From a virus (taxonomy: Duplodnaviria > Heunggongvirae > Uroviricota > Caudoviricetes): a stretch of DNA of 64,000 nucleotides. The notes beneath the pieces were generated by a model. That model was not told the origin of the DNA, did no database searches, and worked only from the letters and a program-made list of their open reading frames with translations. Position numbers and translations under genes: made by a program. Where the stretch lies: positions 1-64,000 of IMG/VR virus record IMGVR_UViG_3300042922_000286; one strand, 5' to 3'. This document shows, piece by piece, positions 1,021 through 30,880 of the stretch. How positions within the stretch are numbered: position 1 is the first letter of the stretch; each line of letters opens with the position of its first letter.

Positions 1021-1053
1021 AACTACCACTCCCTTCAAAGTGTCCCATTTCAC

Positions 1054-4417: not shown

Positions 4418-4503
4418 ATTCTTCCCCCTTTTTCCCCAATCCCTGAGGTGTTTCTTTTCGAGTTGTGCGTAGTCGTCAGTTTCGTTCATCTGTCCTATTC
4501 TCC

Positions 4504-4850: not shown

Positions 4851-5282
4851 TTAATTAGTTCCTGTATGCCCGAAGCCGCCTTGCCCGCGCTCCGTATCAT
4901 CCAGATCGTCTACAATTTCGAATTCTGCGCGTTCAACTGCCGCGATCACGCCCTGTGCAATACGCTCACCTTTAAACACTCGGAAGAACTCGCCGCCGAT
5001 GTTGTCTACGATGACCTTGATTTCACCACGGAAGTCGCTGTCAATAGTACCGGGGGCGTTCGCTACACGAATCTTTGTCTTGAAGGACATTCCCGAGCGT
5101 GGTCGAATCTGCATTTCATAACCTACAGGGATTGCTACTGCGATACCTAGAGGGATTAGTACAGTCTCTCCCGCAGGTACGTCTACAGGCTCGGCGGCGT
5201 AAAGGTCAAAACCTGCCGCCCCTTCCGTCATGTGCCGAGGAACTACAGCGTCAGCGTGAAGTTTCTTGAAGGGAATCCGCAT
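4851..5282 (-). CDS. dut: dUTP diphosphatase (dUTPase).
   Basis: All five dUTPase motifs are present (AGFDL, RPRSG, GTIDSDFRGE, RIAQ, GGFGHTG). Confidence 0.85.
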   Translation of the reverse strand: MRIPFKKLHADAVVPRHMTEGAAGFDLYAAEPVDVPAGETVLIPLGIAVAIPVGYEMQIRPRSGMSFKTKIRVANAPGTIDSDFRGEIKVIVDNIGGEFFRVFKGERIAQGVIAAVERAEFEIVDDLDDTERGQGGFGHTGTN

Positions 5283-5750: not shown

Positions 5751-5793
5751 CTTACAATGAACCTATACGGCAGGTACTACCGTTAGTTTAGGG
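5751..5793 (-). promoter_or_regulatory. Conserved bipartite promoter-like element, copy 1 (transcribed strand: CCCTAAACT-N15-CGTATAGGTTCATTGTAAG).
   Basis: Core on plus at 5751-5769 and box AGTTTAG at 5785-5791, with an exact 15-nt spacer. The spacer contains GGTAGTACC. Confidence 0.5.
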
Positions 5794-5836: not shown

Positions 5837-6865
5837 TTATACTGCTATGTCTCCAAACACATCAATGATCTCATGCTGGAAGTGCTCATCCCTGATCTTC
5901 TCCACGTTGAGTGCGAGAACATACCCGTTGCCCCGCACCGAGAAGAAGTCATGGTTGACCGTAACAGTATCAATACCGTTCAGCACAATCGGGTTAATGT
6001 CCCTGTCCGTTATGTTGAACTTTGGTTCCAACCCGAGATTGGCCAAAGCTTTATCCGCGTTGTATTTGAGGAATGTGATTACCTCATCCACCAGCTCTAC
6101 CTCAGCGTACAAATCGTGGGTATAAGTTAGCTCATTTTGGTGCAGACTGTTAAGGAGGGAGTACACATCCCTCTTTGTATCCTCCTTCTCTTCGTCAGGG
6201 ATTTTAGCAAAGGCTTCTTGTGCGTACATACCCACCAGAAGGCCGTGAATGCTTTCATCCCTGATAATTAGCCCAATGACTTCGCCAGAGGCCGTCATTT
6301 GCCCTTGACCTGCCAGATAGAGAGGATAGAAGAATCCACTATAAAACAGGTAGCTTTCCAGCAGCACAGATGCAGCCAGCGCCATATAATACTCGCGCGG
6401 GGTGAGTACGCCTAGCACGTAGCTCATCAACGCACGTCTATAATAGATGTCGATGATTTCCGTTTTACGTTGTAGGTTCGGTTGGCGGTCGCCCCATGTA
6501 AATACTTCGTTGATCTCTTCCTGTGTAAGCAGGGTGGTGAAGATGGAGCTATACGACTTGGCGTGAACCGCCTCCATAGCCCCCATGAAGTTCAACACAG
6601 CTTTGCGCTGCTCTCCCTCGGTCATGAGGGAGATAACAGGCATACCAGTGTTCGTCTGCTTCGTATCCAGCCCTGTGAGGCCCACAAGAACCCGGGAGTA
6701 TACTCTACGTTGGGCAGGCTGTAGATTGTGCCATACGATCAAATCATCGCTCACAGGGAAGTCCTTATCCAGCCAAAACTGGGCCACATTCTGATCCCAA
6801 AACTCCTGAGTATAGTCGTCCTCGGGTCTATTCCAGTTTACTGCTTTGTATTGTGTTTGCTCCAT
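5837..6865 (-). CDS. nrdF: Ribonucleotide reductase class Ib small (beta) subunit.
   Basis: Ferritin-like di-iron motifs (RDESIHG; FYSGFFYPLYL). Confidence 0.85.
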   Translation of the reverse strand: MEQTQYKAVNWNRPEDDYTQEFWDQNVAQFWLDKDFPVSDDLIVWHNLQPAQRRVYSRVLVGLTGLDTKQTNTGMPVISLMTEGEQRKAVLNFMGAMEAVHAKSYSSIFTTLLTQEEINEVFTWGDRQPNLQRKTEIIDIYYRRALMSYVLGVLTPREYYMALAASVLLESYLFYSGFFYPLYLAGQGQMTASGEVIGLIIRDESIHGLLVGMYAQEAFAKIPDEEKEDTKRDVYSLLNSLHQNELTYTHDLYAEVELVDEVITFLKYNADKALANLGLEPKFNITDRDINPIVLNGIDTVTVNHDFFSVRGNGYVLALNVEKIRDEHFQHEIIDVFGDIAV

Positions 6866-6881
6866 GTGATTAAATTCCCCC

Positions 6882-8990: not shown

Positions 8991-9381
8991 TGCTTCTCAC
9001 CCCTAATGTGAATTTTTCTACATCAACATCCGACCCTGATAGTTCGAATTTCAAGATGATTGGGACACCGTACCTATCCGCTATCAGATCAGCCGCCTTG
9101 CAGTAGTTGTTCCCCCAATTTCTATTCCCACTCGACGCAACCCCACGCATGAATGTATGATTGCTTTCAAGGAACTCGCCTGTCGAAACGGCAACGCGAC
9201 CAAAGCCAGTAGTGTAAGTGACTAAAACAAAAGGTTCGTGGACCACAAGCCCCTTACCAATCTTTATGTAAGGTAACCCGGTCTTGTCTACGAACCTTTC
9301 TACGTTTCCTGTTCTTGTGTCAAATACCACTAACATAGGTCGTTGAGGTAATAGATAGTATAGAACGCAATCACTGTTCAC
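8971..9381 (-). CDS. nrdI: NrdI flavodoxin-like protein.
   Basis: MLVVFDTRTGNVERF...LVTYTTGFG...GVASSGNRNWG...FELSG match NrdI signatures. The start is uncertain: GTG at 9381 or ATG at 9336. Confidence 0.65.
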   Translation of the reverse strand: MNSDCVLYYLLPQRPMLVVFDTRTGNVERFVDKTGLPYIKIGKGLVVHEPFVLVTYTTGFGRVAVSTGEFLESNHTFMRGVASSGNRNWGNNYCKAADLIADRYGVPIILKFELSGSDVDVEKFTLGVRSIEVYRA

Positions 9382-11966: not shown

Positions 11967-12234
11967 TGTTATTCCCCCTGATTGGTAGTTTTAGATTGGC
12001 GTTGCACTTCTCACATCGACCGTATATAACTATTGGGTCGATACCGCATGTGCGGCATTTCATTACCCCGCCCCTGATGCTCCCGGGTTCCACTACAGCA
12101 GTGAATTCCACGTCTTTGACAGGTATACGCTTTTCCTCGCCTGTCTTTAGGTCTGTCAGAATCATGGTGGCGTTTTTAGCCACGAATTTCTTAGGCAATG
12201 TCATGAGTTTCTCGCTATAGCTGCGTTCGCCCAC
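11959..12234 (-). CDS. Hypothetical zinc-ribbon protein.
   Basis: CRTCG...CEKC cysteine pairs. Confidence 0.35.
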   Translation of the reverse strand: MGERSYSEKLMTLPKKFVAKNATMILTDLKTGEEKRIPVKDVEFTAVVEPGSIRGGVMKCRTCGIDPIVIYGRCEKCNANLKLPIRGNNNV

Positions 12235-12325
12235 ATTACCGCCTGTTCGAGGTTTGTCATGGCTAACGACTTCTCTCGGCTGTCAGGGCAGTTGTTGTCG
12301 ATAACATCGTACGGATTAGGCTTGC

Positions 12326-12868
12326 TCATGCTTGTAACCCCCTGTTTATACCGCGGCGAGTGTCCTCAAGATCACTGCCACGTCGAGATATTTCGCGGCT
12401 GATAGCGTAAGCGCGTTGTTCGTAGCCTTCACGGAGCGCCCGGGTCGCTGTGTACATCGACAGCGCCTCCGTATATTTCAATTCCCATTCGAGATAGAGA
12501 GGCTCACAGTATACTGAGGCGTCCCTAATCTCCCGGTTGCCTTCCTGAACAGTGTAGAGTTGCTTCTTCACCACGTCCCGCACCTCTTCGGCGGTGGAAC
12601 GGTCGATGTCAGCAATTGCCTCGCACCATCTTGCGTAGGACACCATTCCTGTCCAACGGTCAAGGAACTCACCAAGCTCGTTGTATGGAATGTTAGCAAT
12701 GCCGCCGTAGCGCCGCCGCACGTTGTCCCACTCTTGGAACAAGTCCGTTCCGGTTACTGCATCCTCAGGCTTGGGAGGTACAGGCAACCCTGCTCGTTGG
12801 ATTTTGTCCATCGTGGCCCTACGACTGACGAATAGCTTGACGCCTTCGACAATCTCATATCGCTGCAT
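12326..12868 (-). CDS. Hypothetical protein.
   Basis: ORF with coding-like composition. Confidence 0.35.
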   Translation of the reverse strand: MQRYEIVEGVKLFVSRRATMDKIQRAGLPVPPKPEDAVTGTDLFQEWDNVRRRYGGIANIPYNELGEFLDRWTGMVSYARWCEAIADIDRSTAEEVRDVVKKQLYTVQEGNREIRDASVYCEPLYLEWELKYTEALSMYTATRALREGYEQRAYAISREISRRGSDLEDTRRGINRGLQA

Positions 12869-14183: not shown

Positions 14184-14227
14184 TTGCTTACACTGAACCT
14201 ATACGCCACGACCTCGGCTCAGTTTAT
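14184..14227 (-). promoter_or_regulatory. Conserved bipartite promoter-like element, copy 2 (ATAAACT-N15-CGTATAGGTTCAGTGTAAGCAA).
   Basis: Core at 14184-14205 and box AGTTTAT at 14221-14227 with a 15-nt spacer. Confidence 0.5.
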
Positions 14228-16392: not shown

Positions 16393-16710
16393 TCACGGGG
16401 TTTCCCCCTCCAGCTTGGGGAAAGTTACTTTCAACACCTTGTATTTGTTGCTGTACGCTACGTTCACGATAGAACCCTCGATTAGTGCTAGAAACAAACT
16501 ATTGTTCTCGACTACGAGTTCAATCTTTTGCTCCCCCTTGGCGAATGTTACATAGTAGTCATTCCAGCATCCTCGCATACAAGTCTTCTCGAAACGTTTG
16601 CTCTGTACAGTGACTTCTTTCAAATTGCCTGCTACTTCTGGTGCGGGCTTTTCAAACAACCCGCAACCAGTAAGCGCCAGTATTGATAAGATAACTAACA
16701 GCTTTTTCAT
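16393..16710 (-). CDS. Putative lipoprotein.
   Basis: Signal peptide with a lipobox (LALTGC). Confidence 0.45.
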   Translation of the reverse strand: MKKLLVILSILALTGCGLFEKPAPEVAGNLKEVTVQSKRFEKTCMRGCWNDYYVTFAKGEQKIELVVENNSLFLALIEGSIVNVAYSNKYKVLKVTFPKLEGETP

Positions 16711-19067
16711 GCTGCGTCCTCCTGTTCTTCATCGTCCTCATCGTCATCATCGAAGTCGGAGCCTTCACCGCTAATTTTCTTGGTGGCTTGGCGAACGAGG
16801 TAGAGTTCCTCTAAGTCCTCGTTCTTCATCCTCTGGCCCCACTTCGCGCCTACCTCGATGTCGGACTTCAAGCCACAGTCAAGCGGGAGGGCGTTACACA
16901 TAACATCAGCGATCCGCTTGAGTGCATCTATGCCAATACCTTCGGGTACGTCATATATGATCTCGTCGTGCACCCACAGTACGATACGAACATCCAGCTC
17001 TTTGAGCAGTGGTTGCAATTGAACCGAGGCGATCTTAACCATGTCAGCCGAGGAGCCTTGGATAACCGCATTGATCCCTTGACGGAACCCGCGCTGCACC
17101 TTCCAGAACTCTTCTGCTTTCATTTCTTCGTATACTCGCCGCTTACGGCCCAACATCGTCTCGGTGAAGTGGCCTTTCTGCATCTTGAAGCGTTGCTGCT
17201 GCATCCACCGCTGAACGCCCGGGTATTGAGCGAAGTAAGCGTCGATATACTCTTGCGCTTCGTCTACCGTGATTTCTAGCGTTTCTGCCAGCTTGTACTT
17301 GCTCATGCCGTAGATGATACCGAAGTTGATAACCTTCGCGTCTTTACGGGTCTTCTCCGCGTAGATGCCGCGCTTAACATGATCTTTAAGCTCATCAGCG
17401 TCCTTAGTACGGATATCGCCCGCCTCGAAGTGCTTGTCGATATACTCAGCATCGTGGAGCTTCTCTTCAACAAGCTTTCCGTCTTGGTCGAGGAACAAGT
17501 CCTTCATGCCGCGGTAATACTCGAAGTCCCCGTAGTTGCAAGCCCATTCAGGGAACTTGGCATTGAACATCCCACTCGCCGTCAAACTGTGGATGTCCAG
17601 ACCGTCCCGGTAAGCGTTCAACAGCACCTCGTCCTGTGATACGTGAGCAAGTACCCGAAGCTCCTGCTGAGAGAAGTCAATGGAGGCCAGTAAGCGTCCC
17701 GAATCGCTGATAAACGCATTACGAATCAGCCCGCCGACCTTCGCCGGGATTTGTTGCAGGTTCGGGGAGTTTGAGGACATGCGCCCTGTTTTTGTGCCGA
17801 CCGAATTGAAGGATGTATGGATACGCCCCTCAACTACCGCTTTGGGAAGCTTATCGGCAAATGCAGTGGTCAGCTTGTTCTTCTCACTGTACTCAATCAT
17901 CAGGTCGATAACCTTGTGGTGTTTGCGCAGCTTCTTCATGGTCTTCTTATCCGTCGAGTTCGGCTTCTCTTCGTTTACTCTAGGAAGCCCTAGCTTGACG
18001 TATAAAGCCTCTGCCTTCTGAGCAGGTGCATTGAGATTAATAACCCCTGTGTAAGCCCATATCTGCTGCCTGAGGCGTTCCAGATCGGCATGTAGCTCGA
18101 CTGCGACCTTGTTGACTAGGTAATTCTCATCCAAAGCAACTCCGTGCGCTTCTGCGTCGATTACGATGTGTAGGAATGGCATCTCAATGTCAAACATTAA
18201 GTAGTGAAGAACACTCAGCTTCGGATTCGACAGATGCTTCATCTGGAACTCGTAAAGCTTGTAGGTCAGTTCTGTATCGTACGTTGCGTAGTAACCCGCC
18301 AAACTGCCGAGGCGCGTCACAGGATCGTACAGAACAGGCACCTTGTCGAATGTAGTCTTGCCGAAGAGTGAGCCGAACTTCTCAGCCTCAACCTTGAGAT
18401 AGATCGGAGCAATATCCTTGAGCCGCGCCGACTTATTCTCATCAAGCAGTTTGCAAGCAACCATCGTATCGAAGAACCATTCGATGAAGATGCCTAGCCA
18501 ATTGCGTATGACGTGACTATCGAACTTGCAGTTATGACCGAGGAACTTCTTGCTCCTGTCTTCTAGCAGAGGTTTCAGCTTCTTGATCACAAGCTCCTTA
18601 GGTAAGCACTTTACATAGTCGTGACCGATGAGGGCATCCCGAACCCTGTTGCCCTCAGCATCGTACACGTCACTCGGGATAAGTGAATCGTCATCGATGT
18701 TGTCCTTATGCTTCAACGGGATGTAGTAGCCGCGGTGTGGGGCATAGAACGAGATGCCAACGATTTCATCCTTCCATGCATGTAAGCCCATCGTCTCTGT
18801 ATCGACGGCAAGTACGGGCTGCTGCCATAGCCACTCCATGCACTCATCGAGTTGTTCGGGTGTCCATACCATGAAGTAGTGTTCGGGAAGCTTTGTCTGC
18901 GCCGCCATCGCATGAATTTGAGTTTCCTTCTTGGTCATCTTCTTAGCTGACTTAGGCTTCTTCTCCTTGACTACTTCCTCAGACTTCTTACGCCGCCGCG
19001 TTTTCTTTTCCTCAGCACCGTCAAGATTCAGTTCGACCTTCTTCCTTGGCATTGGCTTCGCCTCCAA
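16707..19067 (-). CDS. Family A DNA polymerase (Pol I-like) with a 3'-5' exonuclease domain and an acidic C-terminal tail.
   Basis: Exo I (VDTETMGLH), motif A (LASIDFSQQELRVLAH), motif B (RKDAKVINFGIIYGMS), motif C (VHDEIIYDV), and an acidic DDDDEDDEE tail. Confidence 0.9.
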   Translation of the reverse strand: MEAKPMPRKKVELNLDGAEEKKTRRRKKSEEVVKEKKPKSAKKMTKKETQIHAMAAQTKLPEHYFMVWTPEQLDECMEWLWQQPVLAVDTETMGLHAWKDEIVGISFYAPHRGYYIPLKHKDNIDDDSLIPSDVYDAEGNRVRDALIGHDYVKCLPKELVIKKLKPLLEDRSKKFLGHNCKFDSHVIRNWLGIFIEWFFDTMVACKLLDENKSARLKDIAPIYLKVEAEKFGSLFGKTTFDKVPVLYDPVTRLGSLAGYYATYDTELTYKLYEFQMKHLSNPKLSVLHYLMFDIEMPFLHIVIDAEAHGVALDENYLVNKVAVELHADLERLRQQIWAYTGVINLNAPAQKAEALYVKLGLPRVNEEKPNSTDKKTMKKLRKHHKVIDLMIEYSEKNKLTTAFADKLPKAVVEGRIHTSFNSVGTKTGRMSSNSPNLQQIPAKVGGLIRNAFISDSGRLLASIDFSQQELRVLAHVSQDEVLLNAYRDGLDIHSLTASGMFNAKFPEWACNYGDFEYYRGMKDLFLDQDGKLVEEKLHDAEYIDKHFEAGDIRTKDADELKDHVKRGIYAEKTRKDAKVINFGIIYGMSKYKLAETLEITVDEAQEYIDAYFAQYPGVQRWMQQQRFKMQKGHFTETMLGRKRRVYEEMKAEEFWKVQRGFRQGINAVIQGSSADMVKIASVQLQPLLKELDVRIVLWVHDEIIYDVPEGIGIDALKRIADVMCNALPLDCGLKSDIEVGAKWGQRMKNEDLEELYLVRQATKKISGEGSDFDDDDEDDEEQEDAA

Positions 19068-19314
19068 TTCCTATAACTCTCAGAAGGTGGGCGGCATCAA
19101 AGCCTTCCATCTCATTGAGGTACTGCACTAGCGGCGAGTCATCCGTAATGGCAACGTAGGGAACGATGCGCTCTGCTCCACTCTTGTTGCCTACAGCTAT
19201 CCTAGCATTACGCTCGGACGTGTAAGCCTTCGGTTGCCGCCGCTTGTTACGCCAATAAGCAGCACCAGTAACGATCAATTCATCTTTGCTATCGTGCAGG
19301 ACGTATACAATCAT
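19021..19314 (-). CDS. Hypothetical protein.
   Basis: ORF in operon context. Confidence 0.3.
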   Translation of the reverse strand: MIVYVLHDSKDELIVTGAAYWRNKRRQPKAYTSERNARIAVGNKSGAERIVPYVAITDDSPLVQYLNEMEGFDAAHLLRVIGIGGEANAKEEGRTES

Positions 19315-19754
19315 CGGGATTCCTCGTGCGTTTCCTGTTTCAAGCTCTCGAACTCCGACAGCAACTCGCGGAGCGTATCGTCTTGTTCTGCGAACATACG
19401 GTACACCTGCTCCGTCTGCAACTGTTTCAAGCGGGCATCCATTTTCTTCTTCAACGCCGCCAGCTTTGCATCGCGCTCGATGCGGTCGTTGTGGGCTTTC
19501 ATATCCACCTTGTCAATGACCCACTTGGTAGCTTTGGACGGAGAAGTGTGTGCCGCCGCGCTCAGACCAATGATCTTATTGCCATCCGACAGGTAGCCTT
19601 TGATCTCTCTAACCTCCGCTACTTGAAGGCTTCCCGCTGAGTCGACAACTACTACATCGCCCTTAGCTACCCCGAGTTCTTCAGCACATTTGAAGTCATA
19701 GAGGGTGCCATAAGAACCGATAAATTTTACAGCTACAACTTTGATTTTGGACAC
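19311..19754 (-). CDS. Hypothetical protein; first gene after promoter element copy 3.
   Basis: GTG start at 19754 with RBS GAGGTAA, 26 nt downstream of the core. Confidence 0.4.
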   Translation of the reverse strand: MSKIKVVAVKFIGSYGTLYDFKCAEELGVAKGDVVVVDSAGSLQVAEVREIKGYLSDGNKIIGLSAAAHTSPSKATKWVIDKVDMKAHNDRIERDAKLAALKKKMDARLKQLQTEQVYRMFAEQDDTLRELLSEFESLKQETHEESR

Positions 19755-19780
19755 TGGTCATTACCTCGCTTTGATTTAAT

Positions 19781-19824
19781 TTGCTTACACTGAACCTATA
19801 CGCGACCAGATCAGACCAGTTAAG
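19781..19824 (-). promoter_or_regulatory. Conserved bipartite promoter-like element, copy 3 (CTTAACT-N15-CGTATAGGTTCAGTGTAAGCAA).
   Basis: Core at 19781-19802 and box AGTTAAG at 19818-19824 with a 15-nt spacer. Confidence 0.5.
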
Positions 19825-19830
19825 GTTTGG

Positions 19831-19876
19831 AAAAAAAGAAAAAAGCGCCCTCTCGGGAGCGCCTTATTTTTCTTTG
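19831..19876. terminator. Bidirectional rho-independent terminator (A-run, GC hairpin GCGCCCTCTCGGGAGCGCC, T-run).
   Basis: GC-rich hairpin at 19845-19863 flanked by 14 A and TTATTTTTCTTT. It terminates the SPFH unit on the minus strand. Confidence 0.6.
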
Positions 19877-19884
19877 GTATGGCA

Positions 19885-20751
19885 TTATTTCTGCGCGGCA
19901 GGGAGTTGGAGCATAGGAGTTGCGCCACCCTGAACTTGAGGCAACTGCCCATTCCACTTCTTCGCAATTTCCATCTGGATAAGCTCTTGTGTCACAGCTT
20001 GTCTACGCAATTCGTTCGACTTAGCTTCGGCTTCCGCCTCAATCAAAGCAGCGTCGGCCCGGCCCTTTGCCTCTTCACGTTGACGATCAGCAATAACCTT
20101 TGACTTCTCAAGCTCGACCTTTTCCTGTTCGAGTTTCTGCTGCGCGTCAACCTTGGCTTGAATGGCCGCGGAAGTCTGCTCATCAGGGGCAGGTGGTTGG
20201 AACGTTACAGATTCGATAACAAACCCAACATCTGCAACATCTGACGCGAACCCTTGCTGAATTGCCAATGTGATCTCTTGGCTCTTTTCTCCAAGCACTT
20301 CCATGACCGTATACTTTGTGGTAACGTTCTTTGCCGCCTCAGTCAGTCGTTGTTTCAAGAACCCATCTTCCAGAGTCTTGGCGGACTGGCCACGGAACTT
20401 GTTGAAGATTGCAGGAAGCTTCTGAACATCGATGTGATAGTTATACGAGAATGTAGTAAATATCGGTTTGCCGTCACTGGTACCCACTTTAACGTCAGCA
20501 TAGCTCACCGTTTCAGTAGCAATCGGATATTCCGTTACACGTTTCATCGGGGATACCCAATGCCAGCCTTGGCTCAAGGTTTGGTCTTCCAAACCGCCAT
20601 TTCTATTGTACACTACGCCAGCATGGCCCGCGCCGATAGTTGTAACAAAGAATGCCAGAAGGATCAGCCCTGTTACGATAGTAATACCAATGGATGCAGC
20701 ACCAATAGCAAACCTACTTAACCCGTACGTGTTTCTTCTCATCTTGTGCAT
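19885..20751 (-). CDS. SPFH/band-7 (prohibitin/HflKC-like) membrane protein.
   Basis: N-terminal TM helix, then an SPFH domain (GHAGVVYNRNGG...QGWHWVSP...), then a charged coiled-coil tail. Start chosen at the ATG at 20751 with RBS AAGGGGGAAA; the ORF track extends to 20823. Confidence 0.7.
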   Translation of the reverse strand: MHKMRRNTYGLSRFAIGAASIGITIVTGLILLAFFVTTIGAGHAGVVYNRNGGLEDQTLSQGWHWVSPMKRVTEYPIATETVSYADVKVGTSDGKPIFTTFSYNYHIDVQKLPAIFNKFRGQSAKTLEDGFLKQRLTEAAKNVTTKYTVMEVLGEKSQEITLAIQQGFASDVADVGFVIESVTFQPPAPDEQTSAAIQAKVDAQQKLEQEKVELEKSKVIADRQREEAKGRADAALIEAEAEAKSNELRRQAVTQELIQMEIAKKWNGQLPQVQGGATPMLQLPAAQK

Positions 20752-20896
20752 TTTCCCCCTTGTTCTTAAAGAACTCAATTTTTGTTTGAATCTTACTACC
20801 GAGCCAGTTGTAGATTGGAGCAAGGAACACCCACAGAGCGAACACTGCTATCAACAATAATATAAGTCCACCAATTAGTGGTAACATCGTCGTCAC
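20714..20896 (-). CDS. Small membrane protein, possibly an NfeD-like partner of the SPFH protein.
   Basis: 60 aa with two hydrophobic helices and RBS AAAAGGAGTGA. It overlaps the SPFH start by 38 nt. Confidence 0.45.
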   Translation of the reverse strand: MTTMLPLIGGLILLLIAVFALWVFLAPIYNWLGSKIQTKIEFFKNKGENAQDEKKHVRVK

Positions 20897-21119
20897 TCCT
20901 TTTGTGTCTAGTTAATCTGTGGGCGGCAGCCTTTCACTGCCGCACGTCACTATTGCCAACTTGCCAGTTGGCGAGGAATCGGGGTGTATAGCCTAGAGGT
21001 TCAGCACACCCCTACGTTTGGTGCCCTTTTCCAATGTGACAGGATACAGCGCGGAACCTCTCGCTGATTCGTCGGCAATCCTAGCGTCTATCTTCCGCCA
21101 CCACAGCTTTAACTTAGAC

Positions 21120-21704
21120 TCAGAACGGGTACTTGTCTTCGCCCGTTTCTTCGCCTTCACCTGTTTCTTCACTGTCGTTGTTATCTACGCTGCCACCAGC
21201 CATCAGTTCGAGGATCTCATCCTTGGACTTCAAGGCTACCATTTCCTCGATGTCAGGCAGTTCGTAATCATCGAAGTTGACTGCGGACGGATCGCGTGGG
21301 AAGAACTGGTATGTGGTGTCCAGCTTATCCCCTTGACGGAAGATTTTGAAGTCCCGGGCACGGAGGTCGCCGTACTCATCCAATAGACCGAGCAATTGGA
21401 CGCCGACTTTCTTCGATGCCTTGAAAATCTTCACCTTGTTGTCATCGCGATCAAGTACCGCGATATACGACTTGAAGGATGCTTTCTTACCTGCTTTGCA
21501 CAGTGGGCAGTCCTGCTTACCCAAGCAGGTTACGGTCTTCCAGCCGCCCGCCAGTTGCTCGACGTGTTCCCATACGCTGATAATCTCATCAGGCGGGGTC
21601 AAGATACGAATGACCTTCGATTCTCCGTTCTTGATTTTGAGGTTGTGTACAGACCCCTCATTTGCTTCTTTGATTGCTCCTAAACCTTTTCCCATGTACG
21701 CCAT
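21120..21704 (-). CDS. Single-stranded DNA-binding protein, T4 gp32-like, with a zinc-binding motif.
   Basis: H-x12-C-x5-C-x2-C (EHV...TCLGKQDCPLC) resembles the gp32 Zn site. There is an acidic C-terminal tail (DSEETGEGEETGEDKYPF). Confidence 0.55.
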   Translation of the reverse strand: MAYMGKGLGAIKEANEGSVHNLKIKNGESKVIRILTPPDEIISVWEHVEQLAGGWKTVTCLGKQDCPLCKAGKKASFKSYIAVLDRDDNKVKIFKASKKVGVQLLGLLDEYGDLRARDFKIFRQGDKLDTTYQFFPRDPSAVNFDDYELPDIEEMVALKSKDEILELMAGGSVDNNDSEETGEGEETGEDKYPF

Positions 21705-21750
21705 GTTCTCATTTCCCCTTTGCGAGTGTGTTAGTTGTACAGGCGTTATC

Positions 21751-21795
21751 GCCTTACACTGAACCTATACGACAAGGGTAGGGGTGAGTTTAGGG
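21751..21795 (-). promoter_or_regulatory. Conserved bipartite promoter-like element, copy 4 (CCCTAAACT-N15-CGTATAGGTTCAGTGTAAGGC).
   Basis: Core at 21751-21771 and box AGTTTAG at 21787-21793 with a 15-nt spacer. Confidence 0.5.
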
Positions 21796-21819
21796 CGTCT
21801 GTGGAAGCTTTCAGGCAAA

Positions 21820-21852
21820 ATAAAAAACCCCCTGATTCAGCATCAGGGGGAG
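21820..21852 (-). terminator. Terminator after gene 21858..22055 (hairpin CCCCCTGAT-loop-ATCAGGGGG).
   Basis: 9-bp stem at 21828-21836 and 21842-21850, with AAAATAAAAAA on plus giving the U-run on the minus transcript. Confidence 0.6.
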
Positions 21853-21857
21853 TTGAT

Positions 21858-22055
21858 TTATAGCTGTATGTTTATCTTATTATTGCATGACCTACACCTT
21901 ATAGTTAGTACTCCGCTGTAGTCCGAGTAGGTTACGTCAAACCCCTCGATTTCATGAATAGGGAACGTAATAAGTCCCTTAGTTGTAGAGAGAGCGCTTT
22001 CGCCCACAGCCTCAACGATACCTATACTGTTGCATGAACAAATCAACCTCACCAT
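21858..22055 (-). CDS. Hypothetical small protein.
   Basis: ORF between the sigma gene and the terminator. Confidence 0.3.
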   Translation of the reverse strand: MVRLICSCNSIGIVEAVGESALSTTKGLITFPIHEIEGFDVTYSDYSGVLTIRCRSCNNKINIQL

Positions 22056-22068
22056 GAGAGTGTTCGCC

Positions 22069-22632
22069 TCACATCTGGTTATATTTGGACTTGATCTTCG
22101 ACCATATCTGTGACATTCGGGACTTAGTTACACCAATCACCTTGGCGATCTCGACAAACTCGTAACCTTCCACATATAACTGGAAGATTTGCTTCTCCCG
22201 GTCTGTCAGCCCCATATTGTTCATGACATCCATCATGACTTCGGCGTTCTGATAACCGTAGTCAATAGAGCCGACTTGAAGCGTAGATCGCTCGTCACTA
22301 CCGAGCTCACTTGGGTCATAATTAACTACGATCTCGTCAGCATTTACTACCATGAGATTCTTGCCACTTCCGCACTTGCGCAGGCAGTCACGGATCATAT
22401 TCTCGATAACGTGGTCAACGTAAGTGCTCATTCTACTCGTCTCGCTATTGTAGAGATCAAGCGATCGATATACCTTGAAGACAGTTTCTTGTACAACGTC
22501 CTCAGTGTCCATTCCTGCGAAGCGCTTAGAGCCGATCTTCGCCGCAGTGTGTTTTTGCACTTTTTCTAGGAACAGGTCCATGTCGCCCGTAGCGAACAGT
22601 TCGTCATAGGTCATTGTCGTATTCATTGTCAA
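22069..22632 (-). CDS. Small phage-encoded sigma factor (ECF-like/group 4 sigma-70 family).
   Basis: Region 2 (DVVQETVFKVYRSLDLYN...YVDHVIENMIRDCLRK) and a region 4 HTH (REKQIFQLYVEGYEFVEIAKVIGVTKSRMSQIW). Confidence 0.65.
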   Translation of the reverse strand: MTMNTTMTYDELFATGDMDLFLEKVQKHTAAKIGSKRFAGMDTEDVVQETVFKVYRSLDLYNSETSRMSTYVDHVIENMIRDCLRKCGSGKNLMVVNADEIVVNYDPSELGSDERSTLQVGSIDYGYQNAEVMMDVMNNMGLTDREKQIFQLYVEGYEFVEIAKVIGVTKSRMSQIWSKIKSKYNQM

Positions 22633-22657: not shown

Positions 22658-23752
22658 TCACTTGCTTAGTTTAGGTCTTTTCAGTTCTTCTATAACACTA
22701 TTAGGAACCTGACTCCTAAAGGTTAAGAATGGTACGACCTTGATCTTCTTCATCATTTTGAATTTCAGAAGATCATTGGCATCTTTATAGGGGAGTTCCT
22801 CTGTATCTACGGTGTCGATGCCCCAATGTCCACCCGGGTACATAACCACATTCACCTTGATCGGCGTCTTGGATAAAAGTTCGTACGTCTTGAGCGTACA
22901 ATCAACCCCCGCCTTGTCGTTATCGAAGAAGAGGTTGACGGTTTTAATCCCGGCCAGTAGGAACTCTCGAAGCTGTTCTTCGAAGAGAATCCGTCCAAGA
23001 ATAGCTACGGCGGGCAACCCTGACTCGTAACAAGACATCGTATCGGTTTCCGACTCGTTCACGAATACTTCGGTTATCTTATATGGGCTTTGTGAGAGGT
23101 AGTACAGCCCATACAGGATATCCTTCTTGTATATGTTCTTCTCGTTGAGGAAGGATTTCGTCAAGACGTTCCTTCTCTTGATGAAGCGAACCAGCCCTTT
23201 ACTCGTTCTGACCGGGAACGTAATGGAATTGGATTGCTCATCGTACCCGATCTCGTATTTACGTAAGGTGCGATCACTGAATCCGCGACTGGTAATATAT
23301 GAATGCTTCTTGCTTGTGTACTTTGTCACCTCGGATTCAGGTAAAGACCGTTTCCTGTCCAGCTTGTTCCCCCCATCAATGATACTACGTATGTCCAACT
23401 TTTTTCTGTCTTTTACGGACAGCACGATGTAGTGTTTTTGAATGTAGTGTAGACCGTGAATCTCTGACGGTAGCTCCATGACGTGAGCGATTAGCTTGCC
23501 GAGACTTCCTGACTCACCGCACCCAAAACAGTTGAACGTATACGGGTACTGTGTGAGGATACCGAAGGACGGCGATTCCTCTTCGTGGTACGGACAGCAG
23601 CACATTATGTTCTCACCTTTGTTTGATGTCTTGTCAAAGGCGCTAACATTATACAGCACTTGTTTGCCCGATCTCCACGACAACATTAAGTCGTCAAGCA
23701 TCTCTTCTACGTCAATATGTACCGCCGAAAGTATATCCGACAATTCCCACAC
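22658..23752 (-). CDS. DNA primase (DnaG-like: CHC2 zinc finger plus TOPRIM).
   Basis: CCPYHEEESPSF...CFGCGESGS zinc-binding domain; TOPRIM EV..ESETDTMSC...FFDNDKAG. The start is uncertain (GTG at 23752 or TTG at 23743). Confidence 0.8.
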   Translation of the reverse strand: MWELSDILSAVHIDVEEMLDDLMLSWRSGKQVLYNVSAFDKTSNKGENIMCCCPYHEEESPSFGILTQYPYTFNCFGCGESGSLGKLIAHVMELPSEIHGLHYIQKHYIVLSVKDRKKLDIRSIIDGGNKLDRKRSLPESEVTKYTSKKHSYITSRGFSDRTLRKYEIGYDEQSNSITFPVRTSKGLVRFIKRRNVLTKSFLNEKNIYKKDILYGLYYLSQSPYKITEVFVNESETDTMSCYESGLPAVAILGRILFEEQLREFLLAGIKTVNLFFDNDKAGVDCTLKTYELLSKTPIKVNVVMYPGGHWGIDTVDTEELPYKDANDLLKFKMMKKIKVVPFLTFRSQVPNSVIEELKRPKLSK

Positions 23753-23969: not shown

Positions 23970-25016
23970 TTAGTTATGTTTCAACTTATTGTACTCCTGA
24001 ATGATAGCGTATTCCTCAGCCGTAACTGTGCGCACCTTGTTGATATGTTCCCACTTACATGTGTCAGTAAACTGATAGCGGAAGTGTTCACCGAATATAG
24101 GGATGTTCGCTTCGATCTGATTGGCAAGTTGCTCCATACCTGCGCGAAGCTCAGGGTTGGCTTTGGTCAACTTTGATCTGCGGAAGTACACATATCGCAA
24201 CTCATGTAAGTCGATCTTCCACAGCGCCGCGCCCGGGTGACCTAAATTAACGAGTCCGCGGAATACATCCTTACGTAATCCGTTCTTCTCACTCATGTCA
24301 GCGTACTTCTCAAGAACATAACCAAACGGAGTGTACTTGAACTTGTCATCCCCTACGAAAATAGCATCAGGGAATCCCCATTCCTCAGGGGAAGCTGTAC
24401 GGACACCGCCCGCCCAATCAACGTACTCCAATGAGCCTTTCTGTAGCATCTTATTAAAGCCATCGAATGTGATGATCTTTCCCTCATACCATTCAGATAC
24501 CTCAGGCTCACTGATCTCGGCAAGGCGGGTTGAGAAGCGAGTGATACGGTTATTGAAGCGTTGTGCGTGAGCATCAAGATCATCTTGCGCCCCACGATGC
24601 AGGCCATCTGTGAAGAAGCTGATGTCGATATACTTCATTAATGTGTGGTGATCGAACTCGACCATAGCATTGTTCTTCGTCATCCCGAGCAGTCGCTTGA
24701 ACTCTGCAATATCCTCGTTATAAATACCTTTGATCTTCGGATGGCTGTTAGTCACACCAGCGAAAATACCAAGGGCAGCAAGCTTATTGCGGTACTCTCC
24801 ATTTTGCGCTAGGAACCCGTTCTTGTCGGTGCAAACATACACAAGGTCTTGAATATGCTGTGCCTTCTCCCAAGAATAATACTTGGACTGTGACATCCGT
24901 AGGCTCATGATTGCTTCTTCATACCCACTTACTTTATATAGATGAAATTGCATTGCTGAGTTCCCCCTTGTTCTGTTCGTGTTTTGATTATAATATGCGA
25001 ACATCTGTTCGTGCAA
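23970..25016 (-). CDS. Hypothetical 348-aa protein with no recognisable catalytic motif.
   Basis: Long ORF. A thymidylate-synthase (ThyX) relationship was considered but the RHR..S motif is absent. Confidence 0.4.
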   Translation of the reverse strand: MHEQMFAYYNQNTNRTRGNSAMQFHLYKVSGYEEAIMSLRMSQSKYYSWEKAQHIQDLVYVCTDKNGFLAQNGEYRNKLAALGIFAGVTNSHPKIKGIYNEDIAEFKRLLGMTKNNAMVEFDHHTLMKYIDISFFTDGLHRGAQDDLDAHAQRFNNRITRFSTRLAEISEPEVSEWYEGKIITFDGFNKMLQKGSLEYVDWAGGVRTASPEEWGFPDAIFVGDDKFKYTPFGYVLEKYADMSEKNGLRKDVFRGLVNLGHPGAALWKIDLHELRYVYFRRSKLTKANPELRAGMEQLANQIEANIPIFGEHFRYQFTDTCKWEHINKVRTVTAEEYAIIQEYNKLKHN

Positions 25017-26323: not shown

Positions 26324-27580
26324 TTAAAATACCATCTCATCTTCGGTCGTCGGTTCATATACCCCTGTATCGATGTCCGCTTTGAGGTATACATCCTCGT
26401 CCTTCTTACCACTGCGGTTCTTCTTCAACGACAGTTTGAATGTATCGCCAAGTCTACGGAGGGTGATCGCTCTTGTGGCCTTCTGTGCTGGGTTATCACT
26501 CTCTTGGATTTGATCGATCTCAGGGGTAGCTTGGGAGTTCTTACGAGCGTCCTTCGCCGCCTCCCGGCCCGCCTGTGCTAGAAGCATCGTCGGAGTCTTG
26601 GTTAGTAGGTTCATATCCCGTATCTCCCGAGTAACATTCACGATACGGCGTCGAATATCCCAATCCCCTTTGATATCCATGACGTCGTACAACTGGTCAA
26701 CGACTAGAAACGCGGGTTTCTCACTAGCTACGATGCCGTGAATGTCGGAGGTCTTGAACGGTGATCCACCATTCGACTCTTGGGATAGGATAAGGAACCC
26801 TGCGGACTCCTTCTGCAACTGCTCCAAGTATTCGAGGTATATCTGTGGGTCAGCCAGCTTACCATTCCTGAGCGCCATATTCGAGAAATGAGCCTTCATA
26901 CTATCGAGTCGGTATGAAACCTCAAGCTCCGACATCTCCGTTGATATAAAGGCAACGGGGCGGTTAATGTTGGCCTTCTTCAATGCCATCCAGACGTGGA
27001 AAGCAAAGAAGCCGCCGATTAAGGACTTACCTTCATTAAGGCGTCCCGCTAGAAGAATGAGATCGTCTTCCAACCATCCCCCTGTTAGCTCGTCAAGATC
27101 AGGTATGCCTGTAGGTAATCCAGCCATACCTTCCTTGCCGTGTTTCTTCATATATTCGTCGTAGCGACTGACTGCACTCTTTACCCAATCGTATGTGACC
27201 GCTTTGTTCGCATACTTCTGTAGGAGCGTGTCAATATCCCCACGAAGCTGGATCATGGATTCTAGCGTCTTGCCGTCATTGAGAAGCCCCGCGCCCCGTT
27301 CAAGAGCAGGAGCATATTCCGTGTAAGCCTTTTGCTCCTTTACCTGCTGGACAAGGTAGTCTACGGAGTCAAGATCAGCAAGTTTACGGAACTCATCGAA
27401 CTCGACAGCAACAAGATCAGGGGTCGGCAGAGCACCCCTGTTGGAGTTGCGGAAATCCTCGACCCACTTCACAACATCTTCCAAGGCAAAGAAGTAGGAC
27501 TGGTCGATTCCGTTCTTCGCCATGAATGCAGGGTCTTTGGTTACGAGCCAATGGTTGATAAGTTGCAGTTCTTCAATCAA
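26324..27580 (-). CDS. DnaB-family replicative DNA helicase.
   Basis: Walker A (LAGRLNEGKSL), Walker B (FLVVDQLYDV) and a DnaB-like N-terminal domain. TTG start. Confidence 0.8.
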   Translation of the reverse strand: MIEELQLINHWLVTKDPAFMAKNGIDQSYFFALEDVVKWVEDFRNSNRGALPTPDLVAVEFDEFRKLADLDSVDYLVQQVKEQKAYTEYAPALERGAGLLNDGKTLESMIQLRGDIDTLLQKYANKAVTYDWVKSAVSRYDEYMKKHGKEGMAGLPTGIPDLDELTGGWLEDDLILLAGRLNEGKSLIGGFFAFHVWMALKKANINRPVAFISTEMSELEVSYRLDSMKAHFSNMALRNGKLADPQIYLEYLEQLQKESAGFLILSQESNGGSPFKTSDIHGIVASEKPAFLVVDQLYDVMDIKGDWDIRRRIVNVTREIRDMNLLTKTPTMLLAQAGREAAKDARKNSQATPEIDQIQESDNPAQKATRAITLRRLGDTFKLSLKKNRSGKKDEDVYLKADIDTGVYEPTTEDEMVF

Positions 27581-29911: not shown

Positions 29912-29955
29912 TTGCTTACACTTGCCCTATACGACCTCCGCGAACATTAGTTAAG
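29912..29955 (-). promoter_or_regulatory. Conserved bipartite promoter-like element, copy 6 (CTTAACT-N15-CGTATAGGGCAAGTGTAAGCAA).
   Basis: Core at 29912-29933 and box AGTTAAG at 29949-29955 with a 15-nt spacer. It lies 25 nt upstream of the initiator gene. Confidence 0.5.
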
Positions 29956-30040: not shown

Positions 30041-30880
30041 GTGAGCCATATTAAACTGTTCATTGATCATTTGAAGATCGAACGTGAGCTGTCGAACGAA
30101 ACCACATACAACTATGAGAAGGATATCGAGCAGTTCACAGCGTTCGTATGCAAACCTGTTGAGCAGGTAACCACTGATGACATTGTGCGGTTTCTCGCTC
30201 ATCTAAAGGACAAAAGCATGAAGGCATCCACCCGAAACCGTAAGCTATCTGCCCTAAAGACTTTCTTTAAGTACCTTGCAAGGCGAGGGCGTGTTCCATT
30301 CAGCCCCGCCGCGGACATCGAGGGGGCCAAGCAAGACAAGCACCTTCCGAAGCCAATCAATGCTGAAGTGCTCGACCAGTTATTTGAAGCCGTAAATAAC
30401 CTACGCGACAGAACCTTATTGGAAATACTGTACGGCTGCGGGCTGCGTCGTATGGAGTTGGTCAAGATAAGAATATCGGATATTGACTTTACCCAAGGAT
30501 TCATTCGCGTACTAGGGAAGGGTGGCACCGAACGGATCGTCCCTATCCGAGGCATCGCCTTGCAGATTACTAAAGAACTCGCGGCGAAGGCGAGTGGGGA
30601 ATGGTTGTTCGAGGGCGGCAATGGACATCTGTCCGCACGGCAAGCAAACGATATTATAGCTAAATGGAGGGGAGTGGTAGGGGCCAAGTGGATTACTCCG
30701 CACAAGTTTCGCCACTCCTTCGCTACGCACCTGTTGAATAATGGGATGGAGCTAAAGTATGTACAAGAGCTTCTCGGCCACGCCAATCCAGCCACTACAC
30801 AAATCTATACGAAGGTTGACAACAGACGTGTAGCTAACGATTACGAACAGTTTCATCCAAGAGCAAAAAGCGCCCTCTAG
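30041..30880 (+). CDS. xerD: XerC/XerD-family tyrosine recombinase.
   Basis: SAM-like N-terminal domain and a catalytic domain with R...(GLRRMEL)...HSFATHLL...GHANPATTQIYTKV (R-K-H-R-H-Y). GTG start with RBS GGGAGGA. Confidence 0.85.
   Translation: MSHIKLFIDHLKIERELSNETTYNYEKDIEQFTAFVCKPVEQVTTDDIVRFLAHLKDKSMKASTRNRKLSALKTFFKYLARRGRVPFSPAADIEGAKQDKHLPKPINAEVLDQLFEAVNNLRDRTLLEILYGCGLRRMELVKIRISDIDFTQGFIRVLGKGGTERIVPIRGIALQITKELAAKASGEWLFEGGNGHLSARQANDIIAKWRGVVGAKWITPHKFRHSFATHLLNNGMELKYVQELLGHANPATTQIYTKVDNRRVANDYEQFHPRAKSAL

Follow-up and report, generated by a model that had tools for sequence, protein, structure and literature searches.

A prohibitin-like SPFH gene and its conserved mini-peptide partner as a probable membrane cassette in the replication region of a phage

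Introduction

In bacteria, the HflK/HflC complex (HflKC) forms a cage around FtsH and has an influence on the development of phage lambda through CII. To our knowledge, every characterised SPFH protein of the prohibitin/HflKC/erlin class controls how membrane proteins reach a degradation machine, the partner being FtsH for HflKC, the m-AAA protease for prohibitin and ERAD for erlin, and Gram-positive hosts, at least Bacillus subtilis, are as far as we know without HflKC. In QmcA, stomatin and flotillin the SPFH domain is cytoplasmic.

SPFH folds occur in many other viruses too, and hundreds of phage genomes, those of the Staphylococcus Kayvirus phages used in therapy among them, have genes annotated as SPFH/prohibitin-like; several annotators name the phage homologues 'HflK' or 'HflC'. 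A literature search found no functional study of any phage SPFH protein, only speculation on the Kayvirus protein MbpS, which has been suggested to assist the export of Tgl and which is accompanied by MbpV, a protein that resembles holins (PMC7150955). In a further paper (PMC11153139) prohibitin appears solely in the title of a reference. What is new here is a conserved, unannotated mini-peptide whose gene nearly always travels with the SPFH gene.

Organisation of the locus

The window (the whole stretch of 64,000 nt that was analysed) comes from a phage assigned to spore-forming soil bacteria. Megablast found no match for the locus in the phage collection, so the phage has no close sequenced relative there, and the best match of its PolA reaches only 33%. 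ARAGORN found neither tRNA nor tmRNA in the window, and a small ORF of the same genome matches the Acb2/Tad1-hairpin family.

Both ORFs of the cassette lie on the - strand, the small-peptide gene upstream and the SPFH gene downstream (Table 1), among replication genes encoding PolA, an SSB-like protein, a sigma factor, a primase and thymidylate synthase, which is where the initial annotation of this DNA had placed them. Its description of two real, overlapping genes, with the SPFH gene tightly coupled to that of a small membrane protein, also stands, the overlap being 38 nt with the starts that it had chosen and 29 nt with those of the gene caller. A length of 60 aa for the small protein was not confirmed: the GTG start on which it depends falls inside the Shine-Dalgarno sequence AAGGAG at 20901-20896, and the ATG at 20887 lies 8 nt downstream of AAGGAG, which makes this ATG the likely start and 57 aa the most likely length. 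The 57-aa peptide is identical to a recorded protein (P0121), and the 285-aa form of the SPFH protein is 100% identical to the public gene-caller record P0001; an exact look-up of the 288-aa form returned no record, since the start chosen in public gene calls is that of the 285-aa form.

Table 1. Positions in the window of the two cassette genes and of the features around them
Feature	Position	Strand	Remarks
147-aa ORF, then PolA	19311-19754		downstream unit
Next copy of the promoter-like 19-mer	19784..19802	-	exact match to CGTATAGGTTCAGTGTAAG
Intrinsic terminator ending the cassette unit	19842..19865	-	9-pair stem, then UUUCUUUUUU
SPFH gene, prohibitin/HflKC class	19885..20742	-	285 aa; overlaps the small gene by 29 nt
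SPFH gene, alternative start ATG 20751	19885..20751	-	288 aa; overlap with the small gene 38 nt
Small partner gene	20714..20887	-	57 aa from ATG; single-pass membrane peptide
Small gene, GTG-start version	20714..20896	-	60 aa
Spacer, SSB gene to small gene	20888..21119	-	structured, 232 nt, three perfect hairpins
SSB-like gene	21120..21704	-	194 aa; phrog_14578, E 3.3e-23; first gene of the inferred unit
Promoter-like motif CCTAAAC-N18-CGTATAGGTTCAGTGTAAG	21753..21794	-	about 49 nt upstream of the SSB start
Intrinsic terminator closing the upstream unit	21828..21850	-	9-pair, 6-GC stem, then UUUUUUAUUU
65-aa ORF, last before terminator 21828..21850	21858-22055		

Identity of the SPFH protein

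The large protein is a true SPFH/Band-7 protein, as had been proposed from its sequence: in the profile search Pfam Band_7 (PF01145) matches residues 38-216 with 89.8 bits against a cutoff of 23.6 (E 2.8e-25). It also matches PHROG 200 (phrog_200, E 4.9e-69) and is an additional member of this catalogued, uncharacterised family, whose label 'lipoprotein' is unfit for it, since the protein has no cysteine and hence no lipobox of the bacterial lipoprotein kind.

By sequence and predicted fold its nearest relatives are prohibitin, erlin and HflK/C. A sequence search of the PDB gave prohibitin-2 (E 2e-12), prohibitin-1 in a nearly full-length alignment, and then HflK. The AF2 model (pLDDT 81.5) predicts a TM helix (residues 10-30), an SPFH domain (33-182, with strands in 33-104 and helices in 106-170) and a coiled coil (188-249). 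With this model Foldseek returned 63 PDB chains at E<=1e-3, the best 50 of the 63 being all SPFH-class or vault proteins; the prohibitin complex 8rrh (E 7e-17), erlin1/2 and HflK/C-FtsH (9cz2, 7vhq, 7wi3) lead, and stomatin, flotillin and QmcA-YbbJ rank below them. The C-terminal motif KWxGxLPxVxG (W263, G265, P268, G272) is conserved; its low pLDDT in the monomer model would agree with a segment that becomes ordered when the protein assembles. Compared with a variant locus, L096, the gene shows 47 nt differences and the protein 4 aa differences, which we count as a sign of selection. A tblastn search of the window with the SPFH protein found no second SPFH paralogue, only the self-match.

Predicted topology and the small partner

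Positively charged residues are distributed in opposite ways in the two proteins: 25 homologues of the SPFH protein have 50 K/R in the short N-terminal flank versus 29 in the 15 residues past the TM helix, and 24 members of the partner family have 2 ahead of the helix and 80 in the 15 residues past it. By the positive-inside rule and by analogy, the short basic N-terminus of the SPFH protein should face the cytoplasm, while its SPFH domain, coiled coil and C-terminal motif are predicted on the outer side of the cytoplasmic membrane. In an Erwinia-phage homologue a lipoprotein signal peptide with an LTAC lipobox replaces the TM helix, so the SPFH domain of that protein should be exported. Computationally, then, the large protein combines the single N-terminal TM anchor and the non-cytoplasmic SPFH domain that mark the prohibitin/HflKC/erlin class. 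On the same grounds an N-out/C-in orientation is predicted for the peptide, whose N-terminus would be outside because it starts directly with the TM helix, the Lys-rich tail being cytoplasmic.

The peptide has one hydrophobic segment (residues 1-26) and ~30 remaining residues with a highly charged C-tail; the two TM segments first read into it thus reduce to a single hydrophobic stretch of about 26 residues from the N-terminus. Pfam at E<=0.1 shows no NfeD domain in it, and NCBIfam gave one insignificant match only. The partner family has 128 database matches, 0 of them annotated, and its alignment reveals a common pattern, LW...F..IG...KIK.N.FKEE, at only about 30% identity. In variant L096 the peptide gene carries one synonymous change and the protein is identical.

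The initial annotation had taken the two proteins for an SPFH/NfeD pair that might organise replication or assembly sites at the membrane. The partner is without an NfeD/OB domain, and the SPFH protein belongs by sequence and predicted fold to the prohibitin/HflKC/erlin class and not to the stomatin/flotillin class, in which pairing with NfeD is found. A microdomain scaffold of the SPFH/NfeD type acting at the inner membrane face would agree with the position of the cassette in the replication module and with its inferred co-transcription with the SSB gene, but the fold class and charge distribution that put the SPFH domain outside the cytoplasm would leave only ~10 residues of the SPFH protein and ~30 of the peptide facing the cytoplasm, and together with the lack of an NfeD partner they make such a role scarcely probable at all.

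Transcription unit and spacer

The pair had also been described as an insulated transcription unit of its own, preceded by a structured leader and followed by a strong bidirectional terminator. The terminator on the - strand is well supported (GC-rich hairpin and U-run; -16.3 kcal/mol, z -2.59), but its bidirectionality is formal only, the + strand hairpin being weak (z -1.05); a + strand gene is absent nearby. The terminator that closes the upstream unit is predicted at -17.4 kcal/mol (z -4.09). The 19-mer CGTATAGGTTCAGTGTAAG has 5 copies in the window, all on the - strand, versus 0.02 expected, and 3 copies together with the -35-like element versus 0 expected. The copy upstream of the SSB gene is probably the phage-specific promoter of an SSB/peptide/SPFH unit, and the copy past the SPFH gene would start the downstream unit (147-aa ORF, PolA). 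These terminator and promoter-motif modules bracket the SSB gene plus the pair rather than the pair alone. As the motif is found upstream of SSB and after the SPFH terminator and is absent from the spacer, the unit probably consists of SSB, spacer, peptide and SPFH, and the cassette would be without a promoter of its own, contrary to the insulated arrangement first suggested.

In the spacer itself neither manual nor automated search recognised a sigma-70-like promoter, and no phage promoter-like motif was found there; the best sigma-70 candidate, TTGGCA-17-TGAAAG, was rejected for failing at the -10 element. The structure ascribed to this leader was borne out (MFE -85.1 kcal/mol, better than shuffles, z -2.99), but its length, given as 223 nt (20897-21119), becomes 232 nt when counted from ATG 20887. 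None of the three perfect hairpins is followed by a U-run. Rfam searched at E<=1 over positions 19000-22500 has no match for the spacer. Its other copies, one identical (L095) and one 97.4% identical (L096), are too alike for covariation; the six substitutions of L096 are all structure-neutral in the predicted fold, which is weak evidence (a back-of-envelope p~0.02), and the minimum-energy fold of the L096 spacer itself differs. Run with the spacer on the remainder of the window and on every related locus, blastn-short yielded chance-level matches of 12-16 nt only, and the spacer, having no similar sequence in these, therefore lies outside the mobile cassette.

Pairing and spread of the cassette

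Of 95 related loci, 90 have a small single-TM ORF that abuts the SPFH start, its end being no more than about 50 nt away; this partner is 38-62 aa long, or 102 aa in Kayvirus. By comparison, only 36 of 309 control genes (11.7%) have such a small upstream ORF. The partner ORF is likewise present in 9 of the 11 genome-contig loci, for which a profile scan with a narrow alignment was used. Judged from these sequence comparisons, the mini-peptide is a conserved partner of the SPFH gene.

The family had been presumed rare in phages. On the contrary, it is catalogued as PHROG 200, and a tblastn search puts the number of phage records with an SPFH homologue at 543 (Staphylococcus 275, Bacillus 54, Enterococcus 53, Erwinia 30, others). 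Neighbouring genes differ between loci, and this lack of conservation points to a cassette that is mobile between unrelated phages; it is a mobile module that many otherwise unrelated phages of Bacillota share with prophages and with a few chromosomes. As a rule it lies among genes of DNA or nucleotide metabolism, the neighbours in 27 dereplicated loci including ribonucleotide reductase, thymidylate synthase, DHFR, dUTPase, ligases and RecJ-like genes. Phage Anthos has the cassette directly upstream of PolA, and in phage B13 it is found between dUTPase and RecU. ClpP-like SDH_protease neighbours suggested a protease partner of the stomatin/STOPP kind, a candidate that was dropped because they occur in 2 of the 27 loci, too few.

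In Kayvirus, unlike here, the homologous pair is near lysis genes, mbpV-mbpS standing between lysK and tgl, and this arrangement raises the question of lysis timing or membrane integrity: a holin- or antiholin-like peptide could be sequestered by the SPFH cage, or the energised membrane stabilised, so that early lysis is prevented. One TM helix with a highly charged C-tail would suit a peptide of that kind. Most loci, however, have DNA-metabolism neighbours, the muralytic genes of the window (glucosaminidase 253-1053, SLT 3082-3783) are about 16 kb from the cassette, and the peptide, whose gene is outside the lysis cassette, matches none of the holin families of Pfam or PHROGs, though holins are so diverse that holin-like behaviour is still conceivable. 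We regard this explanation as quite improbable.

Superinfection exclusion, one of the roles raised initially, has precedents in T4 Imm and Sp, in HK97 gp15 and in two lipoproteins, Ltp and Llp. An extracytoplasmic scaffold formed early in the lytic cycle could alter or sequester the membrane parts that the DNA of a second phage needs for entry, and such a role would be in keeping with an SPFH domain predicted outside the cytoplasm, with the lipoprotein-anchored variant in the Erwinia phage, with putative expression alongside early or middle DNA-metabolism genes and with an accessory cassette that moves across many unrelated phages. Temperate B13-type prophages, on the other hand, hold the cassette inside the replication operon, where the gap of 20 nt to dUTPase leaves no separate promoter, so that it would not protect lysogens. 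The cassette proteins, moreover, resemble no known exclusion protein, and PADLOC at E<=0.1 has no match for the SPFH protein, the peptide or the two downstream ORFs. Exclusion is considered unlikely.

The same membrane scaffold might stabilise or repair the membrane against host defence effectors that perforate it during abortive infection. A published account (PMC8581546) reportedly ties SPFH proteins to membrane stress responses in Bacillus, and the Acb2/Tad1-hairpin ORF would speak for a genome that invests in anti-defence. The cassette proteins resemble no known anti-defence protein, however, and it is not obvious how a cage outside the cytoplasm would stop effectors that insert from the cytoplasmic side; we consider this very unlikely.

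Discussion

The architecture of the two proteins, the partnership of peptide and SPFH protein and the expression context described above are held with high confidence. For the explanation as a whole, an HflKC-like membrane cage controlling the turnover of host membrane proteins, we put the probability at roughly 0.4. The peptide and SPFH genes form a translationally coupled two-gene membrane cassette, in which the SPFH protein, like its structural relatives, may homo-oligomerise to a ring or cage fencing off a patch of the host membrane, with the peptide as a stoichiometric partner that would lie in the wall around this patch or next to that wall. Since the characterised relatives gate access to degradation machines, our guess is that the cassette acts on FtsH or its substrates: in early to mid-infection it could capture or shield host FtsH or FtsH substrates, which would stabilise phage or host membrane proteins, and the cytoplasmic amphipathic tail of the peptide could act on the protease side, rather like lambda CIII. 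Such a function in FtsH control or proteostasis, argued by analogy with the fold class, is tentative and rather doubtful; across the 27 dereplicated loci, no ftsH or protease gene consistently adjoins the cassette. It is improbable, if conceivable, that phages carry in this cassette a minimal counterpart of HflKC, in which a homo-oligomeric prohibitin-type cage and a dedicated CIII-like micro-peptide would jointly capture and silence FtsH or another membrane machine of Gram-positive hosts; if true, phages would have a new class of device for host takeover, made of two components and present also in therapeutic Kayvirus phages.

For this window, the outcome is mainly a correction of the first reading, as the pair is not rare, not of the NfeD type and not built on a two-TM protein. 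The range of plausible roles is narrower: the cassette may control membrane proteostasis, act in exclusion or set the time of lysis. The two-protein cassette offers a concrete experimental target.

Compared with known systems, the best match to the SPFH protein by sequence and fold is prohibitin PHB1/PHB2 (PDB 8rrh, 9o9z, 9unl), which has the same N-terminal TM anchor, SPFH domain, long coiled coil and C-terminal cap and a non-cytoplasmic SPFH domain. The identity is about 20%, however, and in mitochondria PHB is an inner-membrane hetero-oligomer made of two paralogues, without a mini-peptide partner, while the window has a single SPFH gene and the phage protein would act in an infected Gram-positive cell. 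The HflK/HflC-FtsH complex of E. coli (PDB 7vhp, 7wi3, 9cz2) agrees in fold class and predicted topology, but the phage SPFH protein scores below the cutoff of the HflK equivalog (TIGR01933, NCBIfam; 26.3 vs 159.4 bits), is encoded by one gene instead of an hflK-hflC pair and does not have the long cytoplasmic N-terminus of HflK.

Stomatin/flotillin-NfeD operons (E. coli QmcA-YbbJ, PDB 8z5g; B. subtilis FloA/FloT) likewise combine an SPFH gene and a membrane-protein gene in one operon, and in both cases the SPFH protein would be expected to oligomerise; their NfeD partners, however, are about 140 aa or longer with a C-terminal OB-fold domain, whereas the phage partner has 57 aa and one TM. Kayvirus MbpS (Staphylococcus phages K, A5W and MSA6; PMC7150955) shows 33% identity over 87% of the query and is immediately preceded and abutted by the gene of MbpV, which is also small, has its TM helix at the N-terminus and carries a charged tail, though MbpV is 102 aa long, the partner-family motif is not clearly present in it and the pair adjoins lysK and tgl rather than replication genes. 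The direct homologues are the 'Prohibitin family protein' entries of Paenibacillus and Bacillus and PHROG 200, at 45-69% identity and with no difference in kind; they carry the same mini-partner gene, and so do chromosomal copies, for example those of Paenibacillus amylolyticus (L006) and the Bacillus cereus group (L009).

The pair and its genomic setting

Two overlapping ORFs are indeed present on the minus strand where the initial annotation had described an SPFH gene with a small membrane-protein gene inside the replication region, and that setting also stands, with helicase, primase, SSB-like, PolA and thymidylate synthase genes around the pair. The finding is real, although several details were mis-described. 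The GTG chosen as start of the small gene (20896) lies within the Shine-Dalgarno sequence AAGGAG (20901-20896), and the ATG at 20887, 8 nt beyond it, gives 57 aa instead of 60 and matches the recorded protein P0121 exactly. The 285-aa SPFH form is the gene-caller version in public data (recorded protein P0001, 100% identical), with the same call in L095, a 102-kb assembly contig carrying a stretch identical to the window, and L096, which carries a 94-100% variant. With starts at ATG 20887 and ATG 20742 the overlap is therefore 29 nt, the earlier 38 nt holding for the earlier starts.

The window is phage genome with nearly all genes on the minus strand and a GC content of ~49%; no close relative was found in the phage collection, and the best PolA match (33%) is to Bacillus phage Mgbh1. 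Since the closest SPFH homologues (68-69% identity) belong to Paenibacillus genomes and related viral contigs, the host is probably Paenibacillus. A tyrosine integrase gene, the only clear plus-strand gene, separates the replication module from the structural one, so the phage may be temperate or use an Xer-like resolvase. Separately, the 42-aa ORF MSKPNPYDVIDNNCPDSREKSLAMTNLEQAVMWANAAIARNS has an identical copy on L095 with a precomputed Pfam Acb2_Tad1_hairpin match; it may be a fragment of an anti-CBASS/Thoeris nucleotide sponge or a very small relative of one.

Coordinates of features in the window
Feature	Position	Strand	Remark
Glucosaminidase	253-1053	-	
Sigma factor	1834-2685	-	regions 2 and 3, 283 aa
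SLT lytic transglycosylase	3082-3783	-	
Thymidylate kinase	3758-4489		
dUTPase	4851-5282		
NrdIEF	5837-9381		
ORF MSKPNPYDVIDNNCPDSREKSLAMTNLEQAVMWANAAIARNS	12201-12329	-	42 aa
RNase H, Cas4-like nuclease, RuvC, RecA			further downstream of PolA
PolA	16707-19067		
Two small ORFs			downstream of pair
SPFH terminator	19865..19842	-	terminator scan; -16.3 kcal/mol, z -2.6
Peptide + SPFH pair	19885-20887	-	
SPFH ORF	end 19885; start ATG 20742 (285 aa) or ATG 20751 (288 aa)	-	sequence
Small ORF	end 20714; start ATG 20887 (57 aa) or GTG 20896 (60 aa)	-	sequence
Structured spacer	20888-21119	-	232 nt between SSB-like gene and small gene
SSB-like protein	21120-21704		
Sigma factor	22069-22632	-	regions 2 and 4, 187 aa
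Primase	22658-23752		
Thymidylate synthase	23970-25016		
DnaB-type helicase	26324-27580		
Tyrosine integrase	30041-30880	+	Phage_integrase and SAM-like domains (seen on L095)
19-mer copies, exact CGTATAGGTTCAGTGTAAG	5751-5769, 14187-14205, 19784-19802, 21753-21771, 29915-29933	-	
Motif copy	19784-19802	-	just after SPFH terminator
Motif copy	21753-21794	-	just after strong terminator 21850-21828; ~49 nt before SSB start

A conserved small partner

The small protein has a single hydrophobic stretch of ~26 residues beginning at residue 1, not two transmembrane (TM) segments, and its length falls well below what an NfeD OB fold requires, which removes the proposed SPFH/NfeD-type pair; it has no assignment in Pfam, PHROG, NCBIfam or PADLOC. 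Across 95 loci holding SPFH homologues at 33-100% identity (mostly IMG/VR contigs), a single-TM ORF ends at most ~50 nt from the SPFH start in 90, compared with 11.7% when the identical test was applied to 309 other ORFs of at least 150 aa from those loci, and the partner is present at 9 of 11 bacterial genome loci. Partner ORFs span 38-62 aa (102 aa in the Staphylococcus phages of Kayvirus) and share a mean identity of ~30%, keeping a pattern of a TM helix ending LW, (P)xF/YxxI/VG and KIKxNxFKEE. Summed over 24 partners, K/R residues number 2 ahead of the TM helix but 80 within the 15 residues that follow it, a charge distribution that clearly predicts an N-out/C-in orientation. A profile search with the partner gave 128 relatives, every one 41-80 aa and unannotated; two families without an assigned function, PHROGs 35614 and 9657, contain some of them.

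Purifying selection acts on both genes: compared with L096, the window's SPFH gene differs at 47 nt and only 4 aa, and the peptide is identical. Judged by sequence comparison, the small protein is a conserved partner of the SPFH gene in a near-obligate pairing, which appears to be the only point here not described before.

Class and predicted topology of the SPFH protein

The SPFH assignment of the large protein was borne out by profile searches (Pfam Band_7, 89.8 bits against a cutoff of 23.6, E 2.8e-25; PHROG 200, E 4.9e-69), which mark it as a true SPFH protein, and the 64-kb window contains no second SPFH gene. A PDB sequence search returned prohibitin-2 (E 2e-12), prohibitin-1 (aligned over about the full length) and then HflK. 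The AF2 model (pLDDT 81.5) comprises a TM helix (10-30), the SPFH domain (33-182), a coiled-coil helix of 60 residues (188-249) and finally a short helix before a disordered tail; Foldseek placed the human prohibitin complex, erlin1/2 and HflK/C-FtsH first, with stomatin, flotillin and QmcA-YbbJ below them. Prohibitin, erlin and HflK/C families have an N-terminal TM anchor and an SPFH domain on the non-cytoplasmic side, as is predicted for the phage protein, and the N-flank is short and basic in 25 of 25 homologues examined. In line with this, one Erwinia-phage homologue has a lipoprotein signal peptide in the position of the TM helix.

Membership of the prohibitin/HflKC class, with the bulk predicted to be extracytoplasmic, is well supported, as is a translationally coupled membrane-protein pair of opposite TM orientations. 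This predicted topology disfavours the scaffold for replication or assembly sites that had been proposed, which we regard as very improbable. An HflK orthologue was rejected (26 bits with the NCBIfam model against a cutoff of 159), as was a lipoprotein, because the sequence contains no cysteine.

Transcription unit and spacer

The supposedly strong bidirectional terminator is a terminator on the minus strand, but its plus-strand hairpin is unremarkable (z -1.05), and bidirectionality would be without consequence since the nearest plus-strand gene is the integrase. The 19-mer CGTATAGGTTCAGTGTAAG has five copies in the window (0.02 expected), all on the minus strand, three with CCTAAAC 17-19 nt upstream (0 expected) and two immediately after intrinsic terminators. 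This element probably acts as a phage-specific promoter, perhaps recognised by either of the two sigma-70-family factors that the phage encodes. The presence of two such factors suggests a phage-run transcription cascade. As the motif stands before the SSB gene and after the SPFH terminator, and neither a copy nor a sigma-70-like site was found in the spacer, the insulated unit is most likely SSB, spacer, peptide and SPFH rather than the pair alone, as first described. Judging by gene position and this reading of the motif, the pair is probably expressed together with DNA-metabolism genes of the early or middle class. At the left window end, the second sigma factor is flanked by the glucosaminidase and the SLT enzyme, the latter reminiscent of Kayvirus Tgl, which adjoins the homologous MbpV-MbpS pair there.

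The spacer, earlier called a structured 223-nt leader, is structured (-85.1 kcal/mol, better than shuffled sequence, z -2.99), but is 232 nt long with ATG 20887 and is most likely not the leader of a separate unit. It contains three perfect hairpins without U-runs (GGGGUGU...ACACCCC; GCCAACU-GGCA-AGUUGGC; GCGGCAG-UGAAAGG-CUGCCGC), has no Rfam match and resembles nothing else in the window or at related loci. Of six substitutions in the L096 copy, five affect unpaired positions and the other turns C-G into U-G, which hints weakly that the modelled structure may be conserved. The spacer may act in RNA processing or regulation, or may give rise to a small RNA; processing, stability and translational control are possible roles. 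Because the small gene comes directly after the preceding gene in phages B13 and Anthos, the spacer lies outside the mobile cassette.

Distribution and mobility

Far from being rare in phages, SPFH homologues were found by tblastn in 543 phage records (Staphylococcus 275, Bacillus 54, Enterococcus 53, Erwinia 30, and others) under mixed labels (band-7, prohibitin, HflK/C, 'lipoprotein', MbpS), and SPFH folds are common in other phages and giant viruses too. No gene that flanks the cassette in the window is conserved beside it at other loci, so by this comparison the cassette moves as a unit. The places where it lands are all the same alike in kind: neighbours in 27 dereplicated loci include ribonucleotide reductase, thymidylate synthase, DHFR, dUTPase, ligases and RecJ-like genes; the cassette lies directly upstream of PolA in Anthos and between dUTPase and RecU in the temperate B13. 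Kayvirus is the exception, with its pair beside lysK and tgl.

Chromosomal cassettes in surroundings unlike an intact prophage were seen in Paenibacillus amylolyticus (L006:6865-7879, near an ABC transporter, a LytTR regulator and YaaA) and the Bacillus cereus group (L009:6858-7786, near transposases). The Paenibacillus protein cluster counts 210 member sequences, an indication that chromosomal copies are domesticated. At 2 of the 27 loci a ClpP-like SDH-type serine protease (PF01972) lies <3.5 kb from the pair, reminiscent of stomatin/STOPP protease operons.

Possible function and comparison with known systems

The SPFH protein would homo-oligomerise into a cage, with the peptide as a stoichiometric component, and the cassette may control membrane proteostasis in the host, for which FtsH is the leading candidate, since to our knowledge every characterised member of the prohibitin/HflKC/erlin class gates membrane-protein degradation; the degradation partners are FtsH for HflKC, the m-AAA protease for prohibitin and ERAD for erlin. 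By this analogy we give proteostasis control a probability of about 0.3. Superinfection exclusion during the lytic phase is possible, if doubtful, a role in lysis timing or membrane stabilisation is rather unlikely, and shielding from membrane-attacking defence effectors is improbable.

In the literature searched no phage SPFH protein has a reported function, and discussion was limited to speculation on the role of MbpS (PMC7150955). The window gene adds a member to a widespread, catalogued but functionally uncharacterised phage family, which the near-obligate mini-peptide pairing opens to experiment. As in the window, Kayvirus MbpS is directly preceded and abutted by MbpV, which shares with the window peptide an N-terminal TM helix and a charged tail, whereas the more distant homologues of Erwinia and Enterococcus phages have no such partner.
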